A DNA stretch of 64,000 nucleotides from an uncultured Candidatus Saccharibacteria bacterium (GTDB taxonomy: Bacteria > Patescibacteriota > Saccharimonadia > Saccharimonadales > CAYLGV01). The DNA is taken from the NCBI GenBank assembly GCA_964383395.1, contig CAYLGV010000001.1, positions 4,031 through 68,030 on the forward strand, read 5' to 3'. This document shows, one piece after another, positions 2,811 through 7,586 of the stretch (positions within the stretch are counted from its first letter, which is position 1; every line of letters starts with the position of its first letter). Position numbers and translations under genes: made by a program. Below the pieces are notes generated by a model. It was not told the DNA's origin. It made no database searches and was given only the letters and a program-made list of their open reading frames with translations.

Positions 2811-3062
2811 ATGTCAAACTTTAATGACGTAACCGATATTATCTACACCACTCGAGACAAAGGGCTGCTTGAGGACTTTCTTGTTGGTCTTACAACCGAC
2901 AAAGAACGTGCCGAACTGGCTCAACGAGTAGAAATCATTAAGCGATTAATTGCGGGTGAACCGCAAGCTAAAATCGCCAGTGATTTAGGAGTTGGTATTG
3001 CGACGGTTACTCGTGGCTCAAAGGCGTTGAGCCAAGGTCACTTTAAGGCTTTGAGGAAATAA
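2811..3062 (+). CDS. TrpR-related YerC/YecD family DNA-binding protein
   Basis: 83 aa. The segment EPQAKIASDLGVGIATVTRGSKAL is a TrpR-type helix-turn-helix. Size and layout fit the YerC/YecD family. Confidence 0.7.
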   Translation: MSNFNDVTDIIYTTRDKGLLEDFLVGLTTDKERAELAQRVEIIKRLIAGEPQAKIASDLGVGIATVTRGSKALSQGHFKALRK

Positions 3063-3064
3063 TA

Positions 3065-3133
3065 ATGACTAACTTACATATTAGGCAGCAGAACACTTGG
3101 TGGAACTCGCGTTATATATGGGAGTCTATTTGA
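3065..3133 (+). CDS. Trp-codon-rich leader peptide (trpL-like), 22 codons
   Basis: I read ATG ACT AAC TTA CAT ATT AGG CAG CAG AAC ACT TGG TGG AAC TCG CGT TAT ATA TGG GAG TCT ATT TGA. Tandem TGG codons lie at 3098-3103 and a third TGG at 3119-3121. GAGG (3053-3056) sits 8 nt upstream of the ATG. Confidence 0.7.
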   Translation: MTNLHIRQQNTWWNSRYIWESI

Positions 3134-3161
3134 CGTACTAAATTGTAAATAAGCAAATAAT

Positions 3162-3184
3162 CGCCTCCCATCTGGGAGGTTTTT
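3162..3184 (+). terminator. Attenuator terminator between the leader peptide and the trp structural genes
   Basis: Stem CCTCCC (3164-3169) pairs with GGGAGG (3174-3179), followed by TTTTT (3180-3184). The 5' arm can instead pair with ATGGGAG (3118-3124) inside the leader ORF. Confidence 0.7.
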
Positions 3185-3203
3185 AATATTAAGGAGAAAT
3201 ACT

Positions 3204-3434
3204 ATGAATGAACATTATGAACAAAGAGTGCCTGAGTACCGCCAGGCGTTTGAATCGATCTGCCAAGAATTTGGATCAGCGAAGGTCGTAGAACTACTGG
3301 TGGCCTGTTTTGGCGAAGAACCAACAGGATATGCCCTAGAAAAGCTTGGAGTAGCGGGCGTAATGCCTGGCATTCAACTCGTACACGTCTACGGAAGAAA
3401 TCGTAATTTTGAATATATAGGAGAACAATCATGA
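3204..3434 (+). CDS. Hypothetical protein (76 aa), first gene after the attenuator
   Basis: AAGGAG ribosome-binding site 8 nt upstream. Its stop overlaps the next start (ATGA). Confidence 0.6.
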   Translation: MNEHYEQRVPEYRQAFESICQEFGSAKVVELLVACFGEEPTGYALEKLGVAGVMPGIQLVHVYGRNRNFEYIGEQS

Positions 3435-3988
3435 GTGAAACAATGCAACCACGTAACGGAGATGAACGGAGAGACCGGATAATGGATATTCGAGAGCGTA
3501 AAGGTCACTTACTTGGACGAGGGATCATCGTGAGCAGCGGTAACCCTGGTTTCGTGCCAGCTATACCACCGGAGGAACCTCTGAAGTACAGCACACCTTA
3601 CATCGACAAAGATGGGAAACCTGCGTATAAGTATCGCGGCAAGCCAACTAGCTCTATTCGTACGCTACCAGCTGACCAAAGTGAATTTGTAAGGACAAGG
3701 AATAGGCATAGCGCTGAGGGGTGTGGGCGAACTGCTTTGAGCACTGCCGTAGAGCGTCAGCAAATAATGATTGCCGAGGACTTAGCTTACGAGCAACAGA
3801 CTAGTGAGGAGGCTCGAGCTAATCGACTTAATCGCTACTTAGAGCTTCTTGGAGACGGAACGGCTCTACTGGATGAGGCTGCTGTGGATGAGCTCAATGG
3901 CCTCGCTCATGAATTCCATATGCCACGTGACTATATAGAAGCGTGTCAGATTATGGATGCGGGAGGTGTGAGTTATGGCATCTGCTAA
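3431..3988 (+). CDS. Hypothetical protein (185 aa)
   Basis: Translationally coupled on both sides, with a 4-nt overlap upstream and a 14-nt overlap with trpB. I recognised no family. Confidence 0.6.
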   Translation: MSETMQPRNGDERRDRIMDIRERKGHLLGRGIIVSSGNPGFVPAIPPEEPLKYSTPYIDKDGKPAYKYRGKPTSSIRTLPADQSEFVRTRNRHSAEGCGRTALSTAVERQQIMIAEDLAYEQQTSEEARANRLNRYLELLGDGTALLDEAAVDELNGLAHEFHMPRDYIEACQIMDAGGVSYGIC

Positions 3989-5189
3989 CATGTTTTACGG
4001 CAAGTACGGGGGCCGTTATGTGCCCGAAATGCTTCAGCCAGCTTTGACTGAACTAGCTGAAGCATATGACAAGCTCAAGAAGGATCCTGATTTCCGAGCA
4101 GAGCTTAAGGAGTTACAAACCAAGTACAATAACCGCCCTACACCACTGGTACATGCCCAAAGCCTGACTGCTCAACTTGGTGGAGCGCAGATATACCTCA
4201 AGAACGAAGGTATGAATCATACAGGTGCACATAAGATTAACCATTGTCTTGGGCAGGCGCTTGTTGCCCGTAAATTGGATAAGAAGCGTCTTATCGCCGA
4301 GACTGGCGCTGGGCAGCATGGTGTGGCAACCGCCACAGTAGCAGCACGCCTGGGATTTGAGTGCACGATTTATATGGGCGCGCTTGATATGGACCGCCAG
4401 CGACCAAACGTACTCCTCATGGAATTACTGGGTGCTGAAGTCATTCCGGTTACTTTTGGTGCACGTACACTCAAAGATGCAGTCAGTGCTGCGATGAAAG
4501 ACTACCTGCAGAATTCAGACACGACACACTACGTGATTGGATCATGCCTCGGGCCTGATCCCTACCCGCGCATGAATCGTGATTTCCAAGCTATTATTGG
4601 TAAGGAGATACGACAGCAACTCGATAGAATACCAGATTACGTTGTTGCCTGTGTGGGCGGAGGTAGCAATGCACTTGGTGCTTTTACCGAGTTTTTGAAA
4701 GATCGAAATGTTACGCTTATTGGCGTTGAGGCTGGTGGTAAGGGCAAAAAACTTGGCGAGCATGCAACACGTTTCCCTGCGGCAAAATCAGGTATCGTGG
4801 AGGGCTACAAGTCGTACTTCTTGCAAGACGCAGATGGTAATACTGCCAAAACACATAGCATTGCTGCCGGGCTTGACTATATTGGGGTTGGCCCAGAGTT
4901 AGCTGCTCTACATGACCAGGGTCGAGTGGAGTTTACTCGAGCAAGTGACAAGGAAGCGCTCGCTGCTGTTAAGTTCCTAGCCCAGACTGAGGGCATTATT
5001 CCGGCTCTCGAATCTGCTCATGCTGTTGCTCACGCAATAAAGATTGCACCTAGACTACCGACAGACACGACTATAGTGGTTAATGTTTCTGGGCGTGGTG
5101 ATAAGGATTTGTTTACCCTTGCTCGTGCTTTCGATGCAAAAAACTTTTCTACATTCTTACAAAACGAGGTACAACACTATGAAAAATAA
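3975..5189 (+). CDS. trpB: Tryptophan synthase beta chain
   Basis: 404 aa. Contains GGRYVPE, NEGMNHTGAHKINH (PLP lysine region) and ETGAGQHGVATA. GGAGG lies 8 nt upstream. Confidence 0.92.
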   Translation: MASANMFYGKYGGRYVPEMLQPALTELAEAYDKLKKDPDFRAELKELQTKYNNRPTPLVHAQSLTAQLGGAQIYLKNEGMNHTGAHKINHCLGQALVARKLDKKRLIAETGAGQHGVATATVAARLGFECTIYMGALDMDRQRPNVLLMELLGAEVIPVTFGARTLKDAVSAAMKDYLQNSDTTHYVIGSCLGPDPYPRMNRDFQAIIGKEIRQQLDRIPDYVVACVGGGSNALGAFTEFLKDRNVTLIGVEAGGKGKKLGEHATRFPAAKSGIVEGYKSYFLQDADGNTAKTHSIAAGLDYIGVGPELAALHDQGRVEFTRASDKEALAAVKFLAQTEGIIPALESAHAVAHAIKIAPRLPTDTTIVVNVSGRGDKDLFTLARAFDAKNFSTFLQNEVQHYEK

Positions 5190-5934
5190 GATCATGACAC
5201 ATGTTGTGGCGGGTTACCCAAACCTAGAGGATTGCTTGGCTTTAATGCTAGAAATGCAAGATGCGGGTGTTCATGCGATTGAGGTGCAGATCCCTTTCAC
5301 TGACCCAATAGCAGACGGTGAAACAATCATGAAGGCCAACGATATTGCATTGACTAATGGCGTGACAATAGAAAGTTGTTTCGGGCTCATTCTGGCTGCC
5401 CGCAATGCAGGCTTAATGGTGCCGATCTACATCATGAGTTATGTGCACAAAGTGGCACATGTGGGCTTTCAAGAGTTTTGCGAGCAAGCAAAACAATGTC
5501 AGGCTGATGGTCTGATCATTCCTGACCTCCCTGCTAGCATGCCGGAGTTTAAGGCGTTGTTAAAACAGTGTGCTCAGTTCAAACTTGACCTGGTTCCTGT
5601 ACTATCGCCCGGCATGGCTGATGCCAGGCTTAAAGCGTACAAGTCGCAGTCTACGGACTTTGTGTACGTTACAAGCGGCAGAGGTATTACGGGAAATAAG
5701 CTGGCGCTTGACCCAGAGCTTACGCAGCTCGTTGAACACGTACGATCGGAGATATTATGTGATGTCGCGTTGGGTTTTGGTATCCAGAGTCAACTTGATG
5801 TTAAGAAAGCACTTGAAATTGCTGATATCGCAGTCGTTGGCAGCGCAGTTATTCGTGAGATTGAGCAGCGTGGAGTCAAAGGTGCTGCTGCATTTGTAAA
5901 ACAACTAATTAAGAAAACAGATCATGACAACTAA
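5179..5934 (+). CDS. trpA: Tryptophan synthase alpha chain
   Basis: The track ORF starts at 5083, but GAGG plus ATG 5179 overlapping the trpB stop gives MKNKIMTHVVAGYPNLED...IEVQIPFTDPIADGETI, which is TrpA-like. Confidence 0.85.
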   Translation: MKNKIMTHVVAGYPNLEDCLALMLEMQDAGVHAIEVQIPFTDPIADGETIMKANDIALTNGVTIESCFGLILAARNAGLMVPIYIMSYVHKVAHVGFQEFCEQAKQCQADGLIIPDLPASMPEFKALLKQCAQFKLDLVPVLSPGMADARLKAYKSQSTDFVYVTSGRGITGNKLALDPELTQLVEHVRSEILCDVALGFGIQSQLDVKKALEIADIAVVGSAVIREIEQRGVKGAAAFVKQLIKKTDHDN

Positions 5935-6925
5935 AAAACGAATTCTAACAGGTGATCGGCCAACAGGAAAACTGCACCTTGGGCACTATCTCGGTACATT
6001 AGAAAACCGGGTACGGCTTCAAGATGAGTATGAGACCTACATAATGGTGGCAGATGTTCAGGCACTGACAGACAACTTTGACAACCCTAAAAAGGTTCGT
6101 GAGAGTGTCTATGAGGTTGCACTTGATAACTTGGCTGTGGGGCTTGATCCTCAAAAGTCAGTTTTGTTTGTGCAGTCCCAGGTACCGGAACTGACTGAGT
6201 TAACGGTGTACTTCATGAACCTCATTAGTCTTGAGCGATTGCAACGCAACCCAACGGTTAAAGCAGAGATGAAGCAGAAAGGTTATGGTGGTAACGTTCC
6301 GGTAGGATTCGTGAACTATCCCCTGTCACAGACGGCTGATATCTTGGCCTTTAATGCTGATCTTGTTCCTGCTGGCAACGATCAGGCGCCTATGTTGGAA
6401 CTGAGTCGCGAGATTGTTGCGAAGTTTAAGAACATTTACGGCTATACCTTCCGGATGCCTGAGATTGTAGTCGGTCGAGTAGCCCGCCTGGTTGGTACTG
6501 ACGGCAATGCAAAGATGAGTAAGAGCCTCGGTAATGTGATCTACTTGTCAGATCCCGAGGAGGTTGTAACTAAGAAAGTAATGGCAATGTACACCGATCC
6601 AAGCCGAAAACATGCAACCGATCCAGGCAAAGTTGATGGCAACCCAGTCTTCATATACCTGGATGCTTTCGGTAAAGACATATCAATTATTGATGAGTTG
6701 AAGCAACGCTATGCTGCTGGCACGGTTGGTGATGTTGAGGTAAAACAGTACTTGGCAGCGGTTCTCAACGAGTTCCTGGGCCCTATTCGTGAACGACGCC
6801 ATTACTATGAAGCGCGACCCGAACTTGTTGCAGAAATTCTAAGAGAAGGAACGCTTAAGGCGAGAAGTACGGTAGCCAAGACAATGCAGGATGTTCACAG
6901 TGCAATGCAGCTCTATCAGTTTTAG
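5924..6925 (+). CDS. trpS: Tryptophanyl-tRNA synthetase
   Basis: 333 aa class I aaRS. HIGH-type motif KLHLGHYLG and KMSKS are present. Overlaps the trpA end by 11 nt. Confidence 0.92.
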   Translation: MTTKKRILTGDRPTGKLHLGHYLGTLENRVRLQDEYETYIMVADVQALTDNFDNPKKVRESVYEVALDNLAVGLDPQKSVLFVQSQVPELTELTVYFMNLISLERLQRNPTVKAEMKQKGYGGNVPVGFVNYPLSQTADILAFNADLVPAGNDQAPMLELSREIVAKFKNIYGYTFRMPEIVVGRVARLVGTDGNAKMSKSLGNVIYLSDPEEVVTKKVMAMYTDPSRKHATDPGKVDGNPVFIYLDAFGKDISIIDELKQRYAAGTVGDVEVKQYLAAVLNEFLGPIRERRHYYEARPELVAEILREGTLKARSTVAKTMQDVHSAMQLYQF

Positions 6926-7024: not shown

Positions 7025-7061
7025 TTGACCAAACACCCATTTAGTTGTATTGTAACCAAAT
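7025..7061 (+). promoter_or_regulatory. Promoter with a very short or absent leader for the 7062 ORF
   Basis: TTGACC, 17-nt spacer, TATTGT, then 8 nt to ATG. Confidence 0.45.
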
Positions 7062-7586
7062 ATGGCAGACGTGGAAAAATCACCGCTTGTGTTCCCCTTT
7101 GAAGCTCAATATGTTGACGCAGCACTTGCTATGGGCAGAGAGGATCAAGAACGGCTAAGAAAAGAAGAAGTTTCATGGTTACAGGAAAATAGTTCCTACC
7201 TCTACGCTCTCTTCTGTGGAGATTTTGCTAAGGTTATAGAGTTATCTGGCATAGATACAGGCAATGCATATTGGGCAGGTCGAGCCATGGGTAACCGGGC
7301 AATCCGACTCTTCTTGGATGATCACACCGAGCTTGACTATGAAGCGTTGGCGACACAGTATCGTGCAAATGTTGAAGTAGACAATAGGCGTCTAGGTGAT
7401 CGTGAGAATCCCACACGTGTAGTTCCCTGGAAGTCGCATGAGATCTTGACCGACTTGTTTGGTGACGAGAGAATTGCAGGAGCACTCACAAAAGTACGCC
7501 ATGAAACGGCACGCGAAACTGCTGCAATCACCATCGCCTTCTATTGTCTCTCGGATATCCCTGAATCTGCCTACGCTAACGTATAA
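7062..7586 (+). CDS. Hypothetical protein (174 aa)
   Basis: Long ORF with a promoter signal upstream. No recognisable motif. Confidence 0.6.
   Translation: MADVEKSPLVFPFEAQYVDAALAMGREDQERLRKEEVSWLQENSSYLYALFCGDFAKVIELSGIDTGNAYWAGRAMGNRAIRLFLDDHTELDYEALATQYRANVEVDNRRLGDRENPTRVVPWKSHEILTDLFGDERIAGALTKVRHETARETAAITIAFYCLSDIPESAYANV

Follow-up and report, generated by a model that had tools for sequence, protein, structure and literature searches.

Computational analysis of a 64,000-nucleotide (nt) stretch of DNA (hereafter the window) from an uncultured Candidatus Saccharibacteria bacterium, an ultra-small member of the Saccharimonadales in the Patescibacteria (contig CAYLGV010000001.1 of assembly GCA_964383395.1) indicates that the 141-nt intergenic region between trpR, which encodes a TrpR-family repressor, and orf76 very probably holds a ribosome-mediated leader-peptide transcription attenuator that senses charged tRNA-Trp. 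The element lies on the plus strand, as do all genes and signals of the operon, and would be part of one transcript, in which it separates trpR from a salvage block (orf76-orf185-trpB-trpA-trpS) that encodes no tryptophan (Trp). The features that define leader-peptide attenuators at the sequence level are all found here, as follows: an open reading frame (ORF) with a Shine-Dalgarno (SD) sequence, cognate codons, a terminator, an antiterminator, a hairpin between segments 1 and 2 of the leader RNA (1:2 hairpin), and a matching geometry.

The leader ORF (trpL-like, MTNLHIRQQNTWWNSRYIWESI) spans positions 3065 to 3133, reads from ATG to TGA over 22 codons, and starts 2 nt past the trpR stop codon. 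Its SD sequence, GAGG (3053 to 3056), lies within the last codons of trpR and precedes the ATG by 8 nt. An earlier reading of these letters (the original prediction) had proposed this ORF together with three TGG codons, and all of them are present, two in tandem at 3098 to 3100 and 3101 to 3103 (3098 to 3103; W1 and W2, the candidate regulatory codons) and the third at 3119 to 3121. With a Trp usage of 0.96% in the long ORFs of the window, three Trp among 22 leader codons has a P of ~1e-3.

The RNA that begins at these codons can form three mutually exclusive helices of similar stability. Segment 1 (3100 to 3112), which overlaps the W1/W2 and Asn-Ser codons (AACUC), is the 5' arm of the 1:2 anti-antiterminator hairpin. 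Segment 2 (3118 to 3132) is made of AUGGGAG (3118 to 3124), C3126, and UAUUUG (3127 to 3132), holds the third TGG, and has segment 1 or segment 3 as its partner. The 3' side of the antiterminator (3154 to 3171) comprises CAAAUA (3154 to 3159), G3163, and CUCCCAU (3165 to 3171), and includes segment 3. The intrinsic terminator, or attenuator (3163 to 3184), is composed of segment 3 (GCCUCCC), the loop AUCU, and segment 4 (GGGAGGU), together spanning 3163 to 3180, and of a run of five U (3180 to 3184). This hairpin, originally recognized as CCTCCC paired with GGGAGG and followed by TTTTT, has an energy of −12.9 kcal/mol (z = −3.9) that was reached by 0 of 200 shuffled sequences. The 1:2 helix (3100 to 3112 with 3118 to 3129) has an energy of −10.5 kcal/mol (z = −2.9; 2 of 200 shuffles as good), and the antiterminator 2:3 helix (3118 to 3132 with 3154 to 3171) one of −13.3 kcal/mol (z = −2.45; 4 of 200). 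The antiterminator had been drawn as ATGGGAG (3118 to 3124) against CTCCCAT (3165 to 3171), extended by ATTTG with CAAAT. The complementarity of this core holds, the extension that lengthens it is UAUUUG with CAAAUA, and the resulting helix, as stable as the terminator, is not negligible.

The coordinates also fit the stalling logic of trpL that had been suggested for this region. The standard ribosome footprint reaches from −12 to +15 around the P site. By simple arithmetic on this footprint, a ribosome with W1 in the A site covers the RNA to approximately W1+12 (3110), and segment 2 is free from 3118; with the stop codon in the A site, it covers approximately 3116 to 3143 and thus segment 2. 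In the proposed mechanism, transcription would begin at a promoter under control of a TrpR operator (2775 to 2803), and ribosomes would translate trpR and then the 22-codon leader, either directly or via reinitiation. When Trp-tRNA is scarce, the ribosome would wait with W1 or W2 in the A site and cover segment 1, so that segment 2 would remain free to pair with segment 3 (3163 to 3171) once the latter is made; no terminator would form, and RNA polymerase would enter the downstream genes (the cargo). When Trp-tRNA is plentiful, the ribosome would reach the stop codon at 3131 to 3133 and cover segment 2, the 3:4 terminator would form, and transcription would end at 3180 to 3184. If the leader were not translated, 1:2 pairing would again allow the terminator to form. 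From this arrangement we infer ribosome stalling, the footprint geometry, transcription-translation coupling, and Trp-dependent termination.

The conservation of the element was assessed through TrpR. The search retrieved 299 TrpR homologues; the two with an organism name are from Candidatus Saccharimonadales, and several others are labelled as TrpR-family regulators. The TrpR alignment was used to retrieve 80 loci each from species-representative genomes and from metagenomes, and the titles of the closest genome loci are almost all Saccharibacteria or Saccharimonadales. Many close loci present a common layout after the trpR stop codon, namely, a small ORF ending in ...GAW(W/R/Q)(N/S)S.Y.(W/R)ESI-stop, then CTCCC-loop-GGGAG followed by five or six T, and then TAATTTAAGGAGAAAT-ATG. 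A hidden Markov model of the element (nhmmer) has one match in the window (3082 to 3208) and 44 more elsewhere in the fetched loci, and those with an E value of <1e-4 all lie within ~50 nt past the end of the trpR match. In total, 33 non-redundant copies of the element were collected, of which 31, from Saccharimonadales, were aligned and analysed. The small ORF and its Trp codon, the conservation of which the original prediction had made a test, are kept both in these loci and in orthologous operons (trpR-leader-orf76-orf185-trpB-trpA-trpS), where the leader reads MKNIILTIFGQQGAWRSSHDIWESI in locus L163 and MSNLHTSQQNTWWNSHYLWESI in L166, the contig of which breaks off within the gene that follows orf185.

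Compensatory changes were found in the stems. Across the relatives, 96% of the alignment cells of the terminator are paired, with compensatory changes in five of its seven pairs, and 82% of those of the 1:2 hairpin, with compensatory changes in three of five pairs (for example, ACUCC:GGAGU becomes AUUCC:GGAAG in L014). Jointly, these two helices are 90% paired, versus 34 to 57% in slid controls, and none of 500 shuffled alignments reached their covariation score. The antiterminator, in an alignment made with MAFFT, is 77% paired, versus 29 to 52% when slid, with 3 of 500 shuffles reaching its covariation score; a model-based alignment gave the same picture. When each of the 31 sequences was masked to W1+12 and cut before segment 4, the antiterminator appeared in all 31 truncated folds, in each of which the minimum free energy (MFE) structure joins four or more bases of the terminator 5' arm to the leader's GGGAG arm. 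In a few relatives all three arms have changed together: segments 2, 3, and 4 are GGCGG/CCGCC/GGCGG in L029 and L087, instead of GGGAG/CUCCC/GGGAG, and GGGGA/UCCCC/GGGGA in L014. Such three-way covariation is a requirement of an attenuator, in which segments 2 and 4 take turns as the partner of segment 3. The antiterminator of L034 is longer (AUGGGAGCC:GGCUCCCAU). A run of at least four U directly 3' of the terminator stem is found in 30 of the 31 elements, L014 having AATTT. W1 and the GGGAG arm are spaced 22 nt apart in 29 of the 31 relatives; only L034 and L088 differ, with 19 nt.

Not all of the Trp codons share this conservation. A codon alignment anchored on the first Trp codon (with L097 read separately) shows an in-frame TGG in all 31 non-redundant relatives, and most of the relatives listed have a GGA-containing stretch (GAGGAA- or AAGGAA-like) before the leader ATG. 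W1 is thus present in all of these relatives; the codon after it is W in only 10 of them, R in 9, and Q in 11. At codon +7, the position of the third TGG, W is found in 22 of 31 relatives and R in 6, while NGG followed by GAG is always kept. This indicates that the third TGG, which had been read as a further Trp codon, is retained as part of the GGGAG arm of the RNA and not as a regulatory codon. Synonymous sites agree with this pattern, with a proportion of synonymous differences (pS) of 0.28 at codons +7 to +10, where they are nearly frozen, compared with ~0.75 (saturated) in the rest of the leader; the ORF is thus constrained as RNA toward its 3' end.

Two kinds of variants were found among the retrieved loci. 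In the metagenome contigs L090 (485 to 769) and L097 (12 to 296), TrpR continues in frame at its C terminus into the leader tail (...FKVLGAWQGNSVKREST-stop, with the pattern G-A/D-W-Q-G-N-S-..-R-E-S-T-stop), and the usual terminator comes next. In six other Saccharimonadales loci (L012, L015, L016, L017, L022, and L033), trpR overlaps a trpC-like gene that is followed by trpB, with neither leader nor terminator, which shows that the attenuator is not universal next to trpR. Other classes of Patescibacteria have unrelated W-rich leaders after trpR, examples of which are SIWQSWQ..EDLL, NKWWKTRLC, PLCWWTGRYRWRS, KVWWAPQ, TYWQKWYF, RWWQNLF, HAWWLDTLCWR, and TNWWDNL (loci L041, L043, L063, L068, L070, L078, L110, L111, L115, L124, L130, L134, L135, L139, and L146). 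The titles of these loci include Roizmanbacteria, Dojkabacteria, Paceibacterota, and Microgenomates, as well as several metagenome-assembled genomes mislabelled as Gammaproteobacteria. These loci have a terminator, mostly an antiterminator arm beside the leader stop codon, and often trpB or trpS as the next gene. In 14 of 16 hand-picked W-rich leaders, the 5' arm of the terminator pairs with an upstream segment over at least five arm bases, and one more pairs four; in 12 of those leaders the pairing segment ends at the leader stop codon or at most 23 nt upstream of it. Since unrelated leaders elsewhere share this pairing logic, the design appears to be general in Patescibacteria and not a peculiarity of one genome.

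Several observations weigh against an attenuator. The control region of 21 of the 31 relatives contains one Trp codon only, and textbook leaders have more. The covariation support for the antiterminator comes from few lineages, because its core (GGGAG:CUCCC) is nearly invariant, and its shuffle control was exceeded only moderately (3 to 5 of 500), which related sequences can achieve without any structure. In the covariance model of the antiterminator a one-column misalignment of L029 stayed and L087 was outside the alignment, so that the formal counts understate the GGCGG:CCGCC compensation seen by eye. The fold of the whole 156-nt region is not unusually stable (z = −1.58). Folding with ribosome masks had been suggested as a check; the antiterminator is the MFE structure only for a transcript that ends before segment 4, and equilibrium folds of the full transcript give the terminator even with a ribosome mask at W1/W2. 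A purely thermodynamic switch was rejected on these grounds; the switch must be kinetic, as in Escherichia coli, because the antiterminator wins only co-transcriptionally, before segment 4 exists. Canonical intrinsic terminators are rare in the window, with only eight sites on both strands that combine a hairpin (free energy of −9 kcal/mol or lower) with T5, two of which follow tRNA genes. This rarity speaks against a chance hairpin at 3163 to 3184, but it also leaves the efficiency of such sites in this organism a matter of prediction. These sites are at 1379, 1528, 3163, 24565, 27366 (bidirectional), 36672, and 43297, and few long ORFs end with one. The Trp dependence of termination is likewise predicted from sequence, and the model presupposes that transcription and translation would be coupled in Patescibacteria.

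The same features could be read in other ways. In a nascent-peptide sensor similar to TnaC or SpeFL, the leader peptide would respond to free Trp or a different ligand by arresting the ribosome, or would sharpen stalling at a single Trp codon, and the position of the ribosome would select the hairpin. Codons −9 to −1 before W1 encode I-T-N-F-G-Q-Q-G-A in most relatives, with third positions that vary freely (GGC/GGT/GGA, CAG/CAA, GCT/GCA/GCC) and a ratio of nonsynonymous to synonymous differences (pN/pS) of ~0.5 upstream of W1, and most relatives have a single control Trp codon. An RNA hairpin proposed for the conserved FGQQGA codons was rejected, since it is 69% paired but its covariation was matched by 102 of 500 shuffles. 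The codon variation fits translation of the ORF with a modest constraint at the peptide level, and so modest a constraint could be due to shared ancestry. The leader of the window itself has HIRQQNT in place of the motif and yet retains WW and all helices, and the leaders of other Patescibacteria have only the W codons and the RNA logic in common with it. In TnaC, with its conserved W...D...P-stop, the ribosome stalls at Pro-stop when Trp is high, and the resulting block of Rho at a Rho-dependent terminator switches on catabolic genes. The element resembles it in having a short leader peptide, an important Trp, and, in most relatives, a conserved upstream peptide stretch, but the peptide ends in WESI-stop, the terminator is intrinsic, and the cargo is anabolic or serves salvage (trpBA/trpS); assignment to the TnaC-type arrest peptides was rejected on these three counts. 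Sensing of tRNA charging already accounts for every conserved feature, and a nascent-peptide sensor is considered very unlikely. Hardly plausible, too, is that the hairpin is the ordinary terminator of a monocistronic trpR with constitutive read-through, next to a small ORF whose Trp codons sense nothing. A hairpin with a U-run placed after a gene is in itself normal, and in L090, where the tail is fused to trpR and the next gene encodes six Trp and is not preceded by the usual AAGGAG, it may simply end trpR. Such a terminator would not explain an in-frame TGG at 31 of 31 diverged loci at a fixed 6 to 7 codons from the GGGAG arm, nor the complementarity of segment 2 to both segments 1 and 3 with compensatory and three-way changes, nor a Trp-free cargo with a conserved SD sequence and no promoter of its own in the 20-nt gap.

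Control of the same terminator by a protein or a tRNA, whether TRAP-like, T-box, or Rho dependent, could in principle drive a terminator/antiterminator pair in trans, and trpS is T-box controlled in Firmicutes. However, TRAP leaders need 9 to 11 (G/U)AG triplets, spaced by 2 to 3 nt and overlapping the antiterminator, and positions 3065 to 3165 contain one UAG and one GAG only; a TRAP-controlled leader was rejected for this reason, and a T-box leader because no Rfam T-box, or other Rfam family, matched the window at threshold. Control in trans would also leave the conserved translatable ORF with its in-frame TGG without explanation and is exceedingly improbable. The hairpins might instead govern the first cargo gene by translational control alone, through masking of its SD sequence or translational coupling and without termination, as segments 2 and 4 (GGGAG) are SD-like and segment 3 (CUCC) is anti-SD-like. 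The chance of this is slight in the extreme, given that the SD sequence of the cargo lies 7 to 10 nt past the U-run and is unpaired in all folds, and that 30 of the 31 elements have at least four U right after the stem, a hallmark of intrinsic termination.

The attenuator would be preceded by a second layer of control at the promoter of trpR. This gene (2811 to 3062, stop codon at 3060 to 3062) encodes an 83-amino-acid, Trp-free TrpR-family repressor (Pfam PF01371, E = 1e-15). Upstream of it lies a sigma-70-type promoter (2775 to 2803; TTGACA-17 nt-TAGTAT, 10 of 12 matches, with TG), which is the best promoter match between 2400 and 7200 and is conserved in relatives. The promoter is overlapped at its −10 hexamer by a TrpR-operator-like array of three CTAG with 8-bp spacing (2781 to 2800, CTAGcgcaCTAGtatgCTAG). 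CTAG half-sites with this spacing are a hallmark of E. coli TrpR operators, and the only two matches to CTAG-N4-CTAG in the window are both at 2781 to 2800. Most of the ~60 loci listed share gtaCTAGtatgCTAGtat upstream of trpR. The −10 hexamer ends 6 to 7 nt before the trpR ATG with no SD sequence there, so that the trpR mRNA is probably leaderless. The start of the leader overlaps or abuts the trpR stop codon in the relatives (−8 to +5 nt), which suggests that ribosomes are handed over from trpR. No promoter-like site was found in the 20-nt gap between the terminator and orf76. The three CTAG and the attenuator suggest dual control, with putative repression by TrpR; because the promoter is overlapped by the operator and the cargo has none of its own, expression of the cargo should depend on release from TrpR (responding to free Trp) together with antitermination (responding to charged tRNA-Trp). 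A tRNA-Glu gene (1296 to 1371) with a terminator-like hairpin of its own (1379 to 1398) and a gene similar to those of aminoglycoside 2''-nucleotidyltransferases (1574 to 2119) lie immediately 5' of the operon.

Downstream of the attenuator, the SD sequence of the first cargo gene, AAGGAG (3191 to 3196), lies outside the hairpins and is conserved as TTTTTAATTTAAGGAGAAAT in relatives. The trpBA-trpS salvage operon of the original prediction is present, although trpB is not its first gene, since position 3204 is the start of the orphan orf76, and two orphan ORFs precede trpB. The first regulated gene is thus orf76 (3204 to 3434; 76 amino acids), a position that is also occupied in L163 to L166, and it is followed by orf185 (3431 to 3988; 185 amino acids), which encodes a two-domain protein. 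Neither has a match to a Pfam or NCBIfam family, and an exhaustive HMMER search with orf185 gave 26 matches in 1.84e9 representative proteins, none of them annotated. In all four contigs recovered via two homologues, orf185 is located between orf76 and trpB, behind the trpR-leader cassette (the cut-off last gene of L166 being assumed to be trpB). The protein encoded by orf185 has two conserved halves, the C-terminal one of which recurs 14 times in one protein of 2,557 amino acids. The block continues with trpB (3975 to 5189; tryptophan synthase beta, Pfam PALP), the product of which is 72 to 74% identical to the TrpB of relatives, trpA (5179 to 5934; tryptophan synthase alpha, Pfam Trp_syntA, E = 4.5e-61), and trpS (5924 to 6925; tryptophanyl-tRNA synthetase, Pfam tRNA-synt_1b), and the stop and start codons of these three genes overlap. 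The gene trpS is the last of the Trp-free block; the ORF that follows it (7062 to 7586) encodes three W, and a promoter-like site is present at 7025 to 7053. In the neighbourhood of the orthologous operon in L163 (2450 to 4318 and 8586 to 9392), a second TrpR-family gene (110 amino acids, HisR-like) is divergent from hisG-hisC-hisD, a PycTM gene is paired with a nucleotide cyclase gene (Pycsar-like defence), and a Replic_Relax gene lies just after trpS. Given these neighbours, the salvage operon may sit in a variable or mobile region.

All five cargo genes and trpR are free of Trp codons, with 0 Trp among the 1,332 residues of TrpR, orf76, orf185, TrpB, TrpA, and TrpS, whereas ~12.8 are expected at 0.96% (P ~3e-6). 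The same holds in relatives, where the co-directional genes after the element encode 0.17% Trp, compared with 1.14% in the remaining ORFs of those loci; Trp returns at the apparent end of the operon. It is to be expected that proteins needed while Trp-tRNA is scarce avoid Trp, an idea that has also been discussed for Chlamydia (PMC3937554). The Trp-free cargo is thus an independent, if indirect, argument for the attenuator. The cargo itself varies, and the same trpR-leader-terminator cassette is followed in relatives (L002 to L039) by genes of unrelated families. Among them are a 276-amino-acid protein without known function, a luciferase-like/F420-type oxidoreductase, and a TIGR04076 protein; a 527-amino-acid protein, equally without known function, a 200-amino-acid protein, and TrpS; a PPDK_N/PEP-utilising protein of 866 amino acids, a histidine phosphatase, and TrpS; a 353-amino-acid protein and a NIF3 protein; and a DUF3182 protein and an aspartoacylase-like protein (example loci L003:2368-4407, L004:5400-9615, L002:5410-8590, L037:1910-3558, and L024:5407-7260).

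The element has no counterpart among the described leader families that were searched. At gathering score, Rfam gave no leader, T-box, or riboswitch family over the window, and RF00513 (Trp_leader) was unmatched even at an E value of ≤10 between 2750 and 3300. The only leader-type match is to RF01859 (Phe_leader), which aligns over its full length at 3053 to 3187 but scores 19.4 bits (E = 1.1) where the gathering score is 55, and this probably reflects a resemblance in overall shape between attenuators and not homology. The leader-peptide models of Pfam and NCBIfam gave no family at an E value of ≤10 with the leader of the window and those of two relatives.

In design, the closest parallel is with the trp leaders of E. 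coli and Salmonella. With the AUG of E. coli trpL at nt 27, W1 and the end of the U-run are ~87 nt apart in that species, and 86 nt apart here. The attenuated E. coli transcript measures 141 nt, and Trp codons occupy positions 10 and 11 of its leader (PMC1183508). Both systems have a short leader ORF with tandem Trp codons, 1:2, 2:3, and 3:4 helices of similar stability, and a stop codon a few codons past segment 2. Both also combine a TrpR/CTAG operator with attenuation (PMC1183508, PMC7755916). The element differs from trpL in that it has no sequence or structure homology to it, follows trpR in the same transcript instead of standing at the 5' end of the mRNA, is limited to one control Trp codon in 21 of the 31 relatives, and precedes trpBA, trpS, and orphan genes, not trpEDCBA. 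A tryptophanyl-tRNA synthetase gene, trpRS1 of Streptomyces coelicolor, studied by Vecchione and Sello in 2010 (J Bacteriol 192:3565, cited via PMC4787780), is reportedly under ribosome-mediated attenuation as well. It is reported to be an auxiliary trpS that confers antibiotic resistance and has a separate 5' leader. In the present case, trpS is the last gene of an operon led by trpR, and no second trpS is found in the window.

In gene organisation, the closest match is trpRBA of Chlamydia trachomatis, in which trpR, an intergenic regulatory region, trpB, and trpA follow each other. The two also share Trp synthesis by salvage only, a reduced genome dependent on a host, and the logic of a Trp-depleted proteome (PMC7755916, PMC3937554). 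The putative chlamydial TrpL, an unvalidated annotation of 59 amino acids that lacks tandem Trp codons, is rated a poor attenuator by PASIFIC, and attenuation is brought about by YtgR (PMC7755916). In contrast, the leader described here has 22 codons with WW, and three covarying helices in an intergenic region of 141 nt.

A literature search for transcription attenuation in the candidate phyla radiation (CPR), Patescibacteria, or Saccharibacteria found no report (most subscription journals were outside its coverage), and the element is, as far as found, the first leader-peptide attenuator in CPR. The mechanism itself is unsurprising, as the element is an example, without detectable homology to others, of a long-known kind of switch. 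Its interest lies in its occurrence in a new part of the bacterial tree, in its position behind, and sometimes fused to, a repressor gene, and in the Trp-free and mostly uncharacterised gene set that it precedes. The element is ready to be made into a covariance-model RNA family for the annotation of CPR genomes, and it offers a clear-cut case from nature with which the disputed trpR-TrpL-trpBA arrangement of Chlamydia can be compared.

Leader-peptide attenuation works only with ribosomes close behind RNA polymerase, and the conservation of such attenuators in Saccharimonadales, and their occurrence in further Patescibacteria, therefore constitute indirect evidence of transcription-translation coupling in this very large and hardly cultivated radiation. 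The cassette-linked genes, being Trp-free and from unrelated families, are candidates for a Trp-starvation response of host-dependent bacteria. Taken jointly, these results may describe, in a proposal that is tentative and falls just short of being probable, a portable Trp-starvation switch across Patescibacteria. In this unit of trpR, leader, and terminator, the ribosome would be handed from trpR to the leader by termination-reinitiation, the sensor codon would sometimes reside in the C-terminal tail of TrpR, often as a single Trp codon behind a conserved peptide, and the strictly Trp-free cargo, mostly of uncharacterised enzymes, would be interchangeable. If true, the proposal would provide evidence for translation-transcription coupling in CPR and reveal a previously unseen Trp-starvation regulon of obligate episymbionts.

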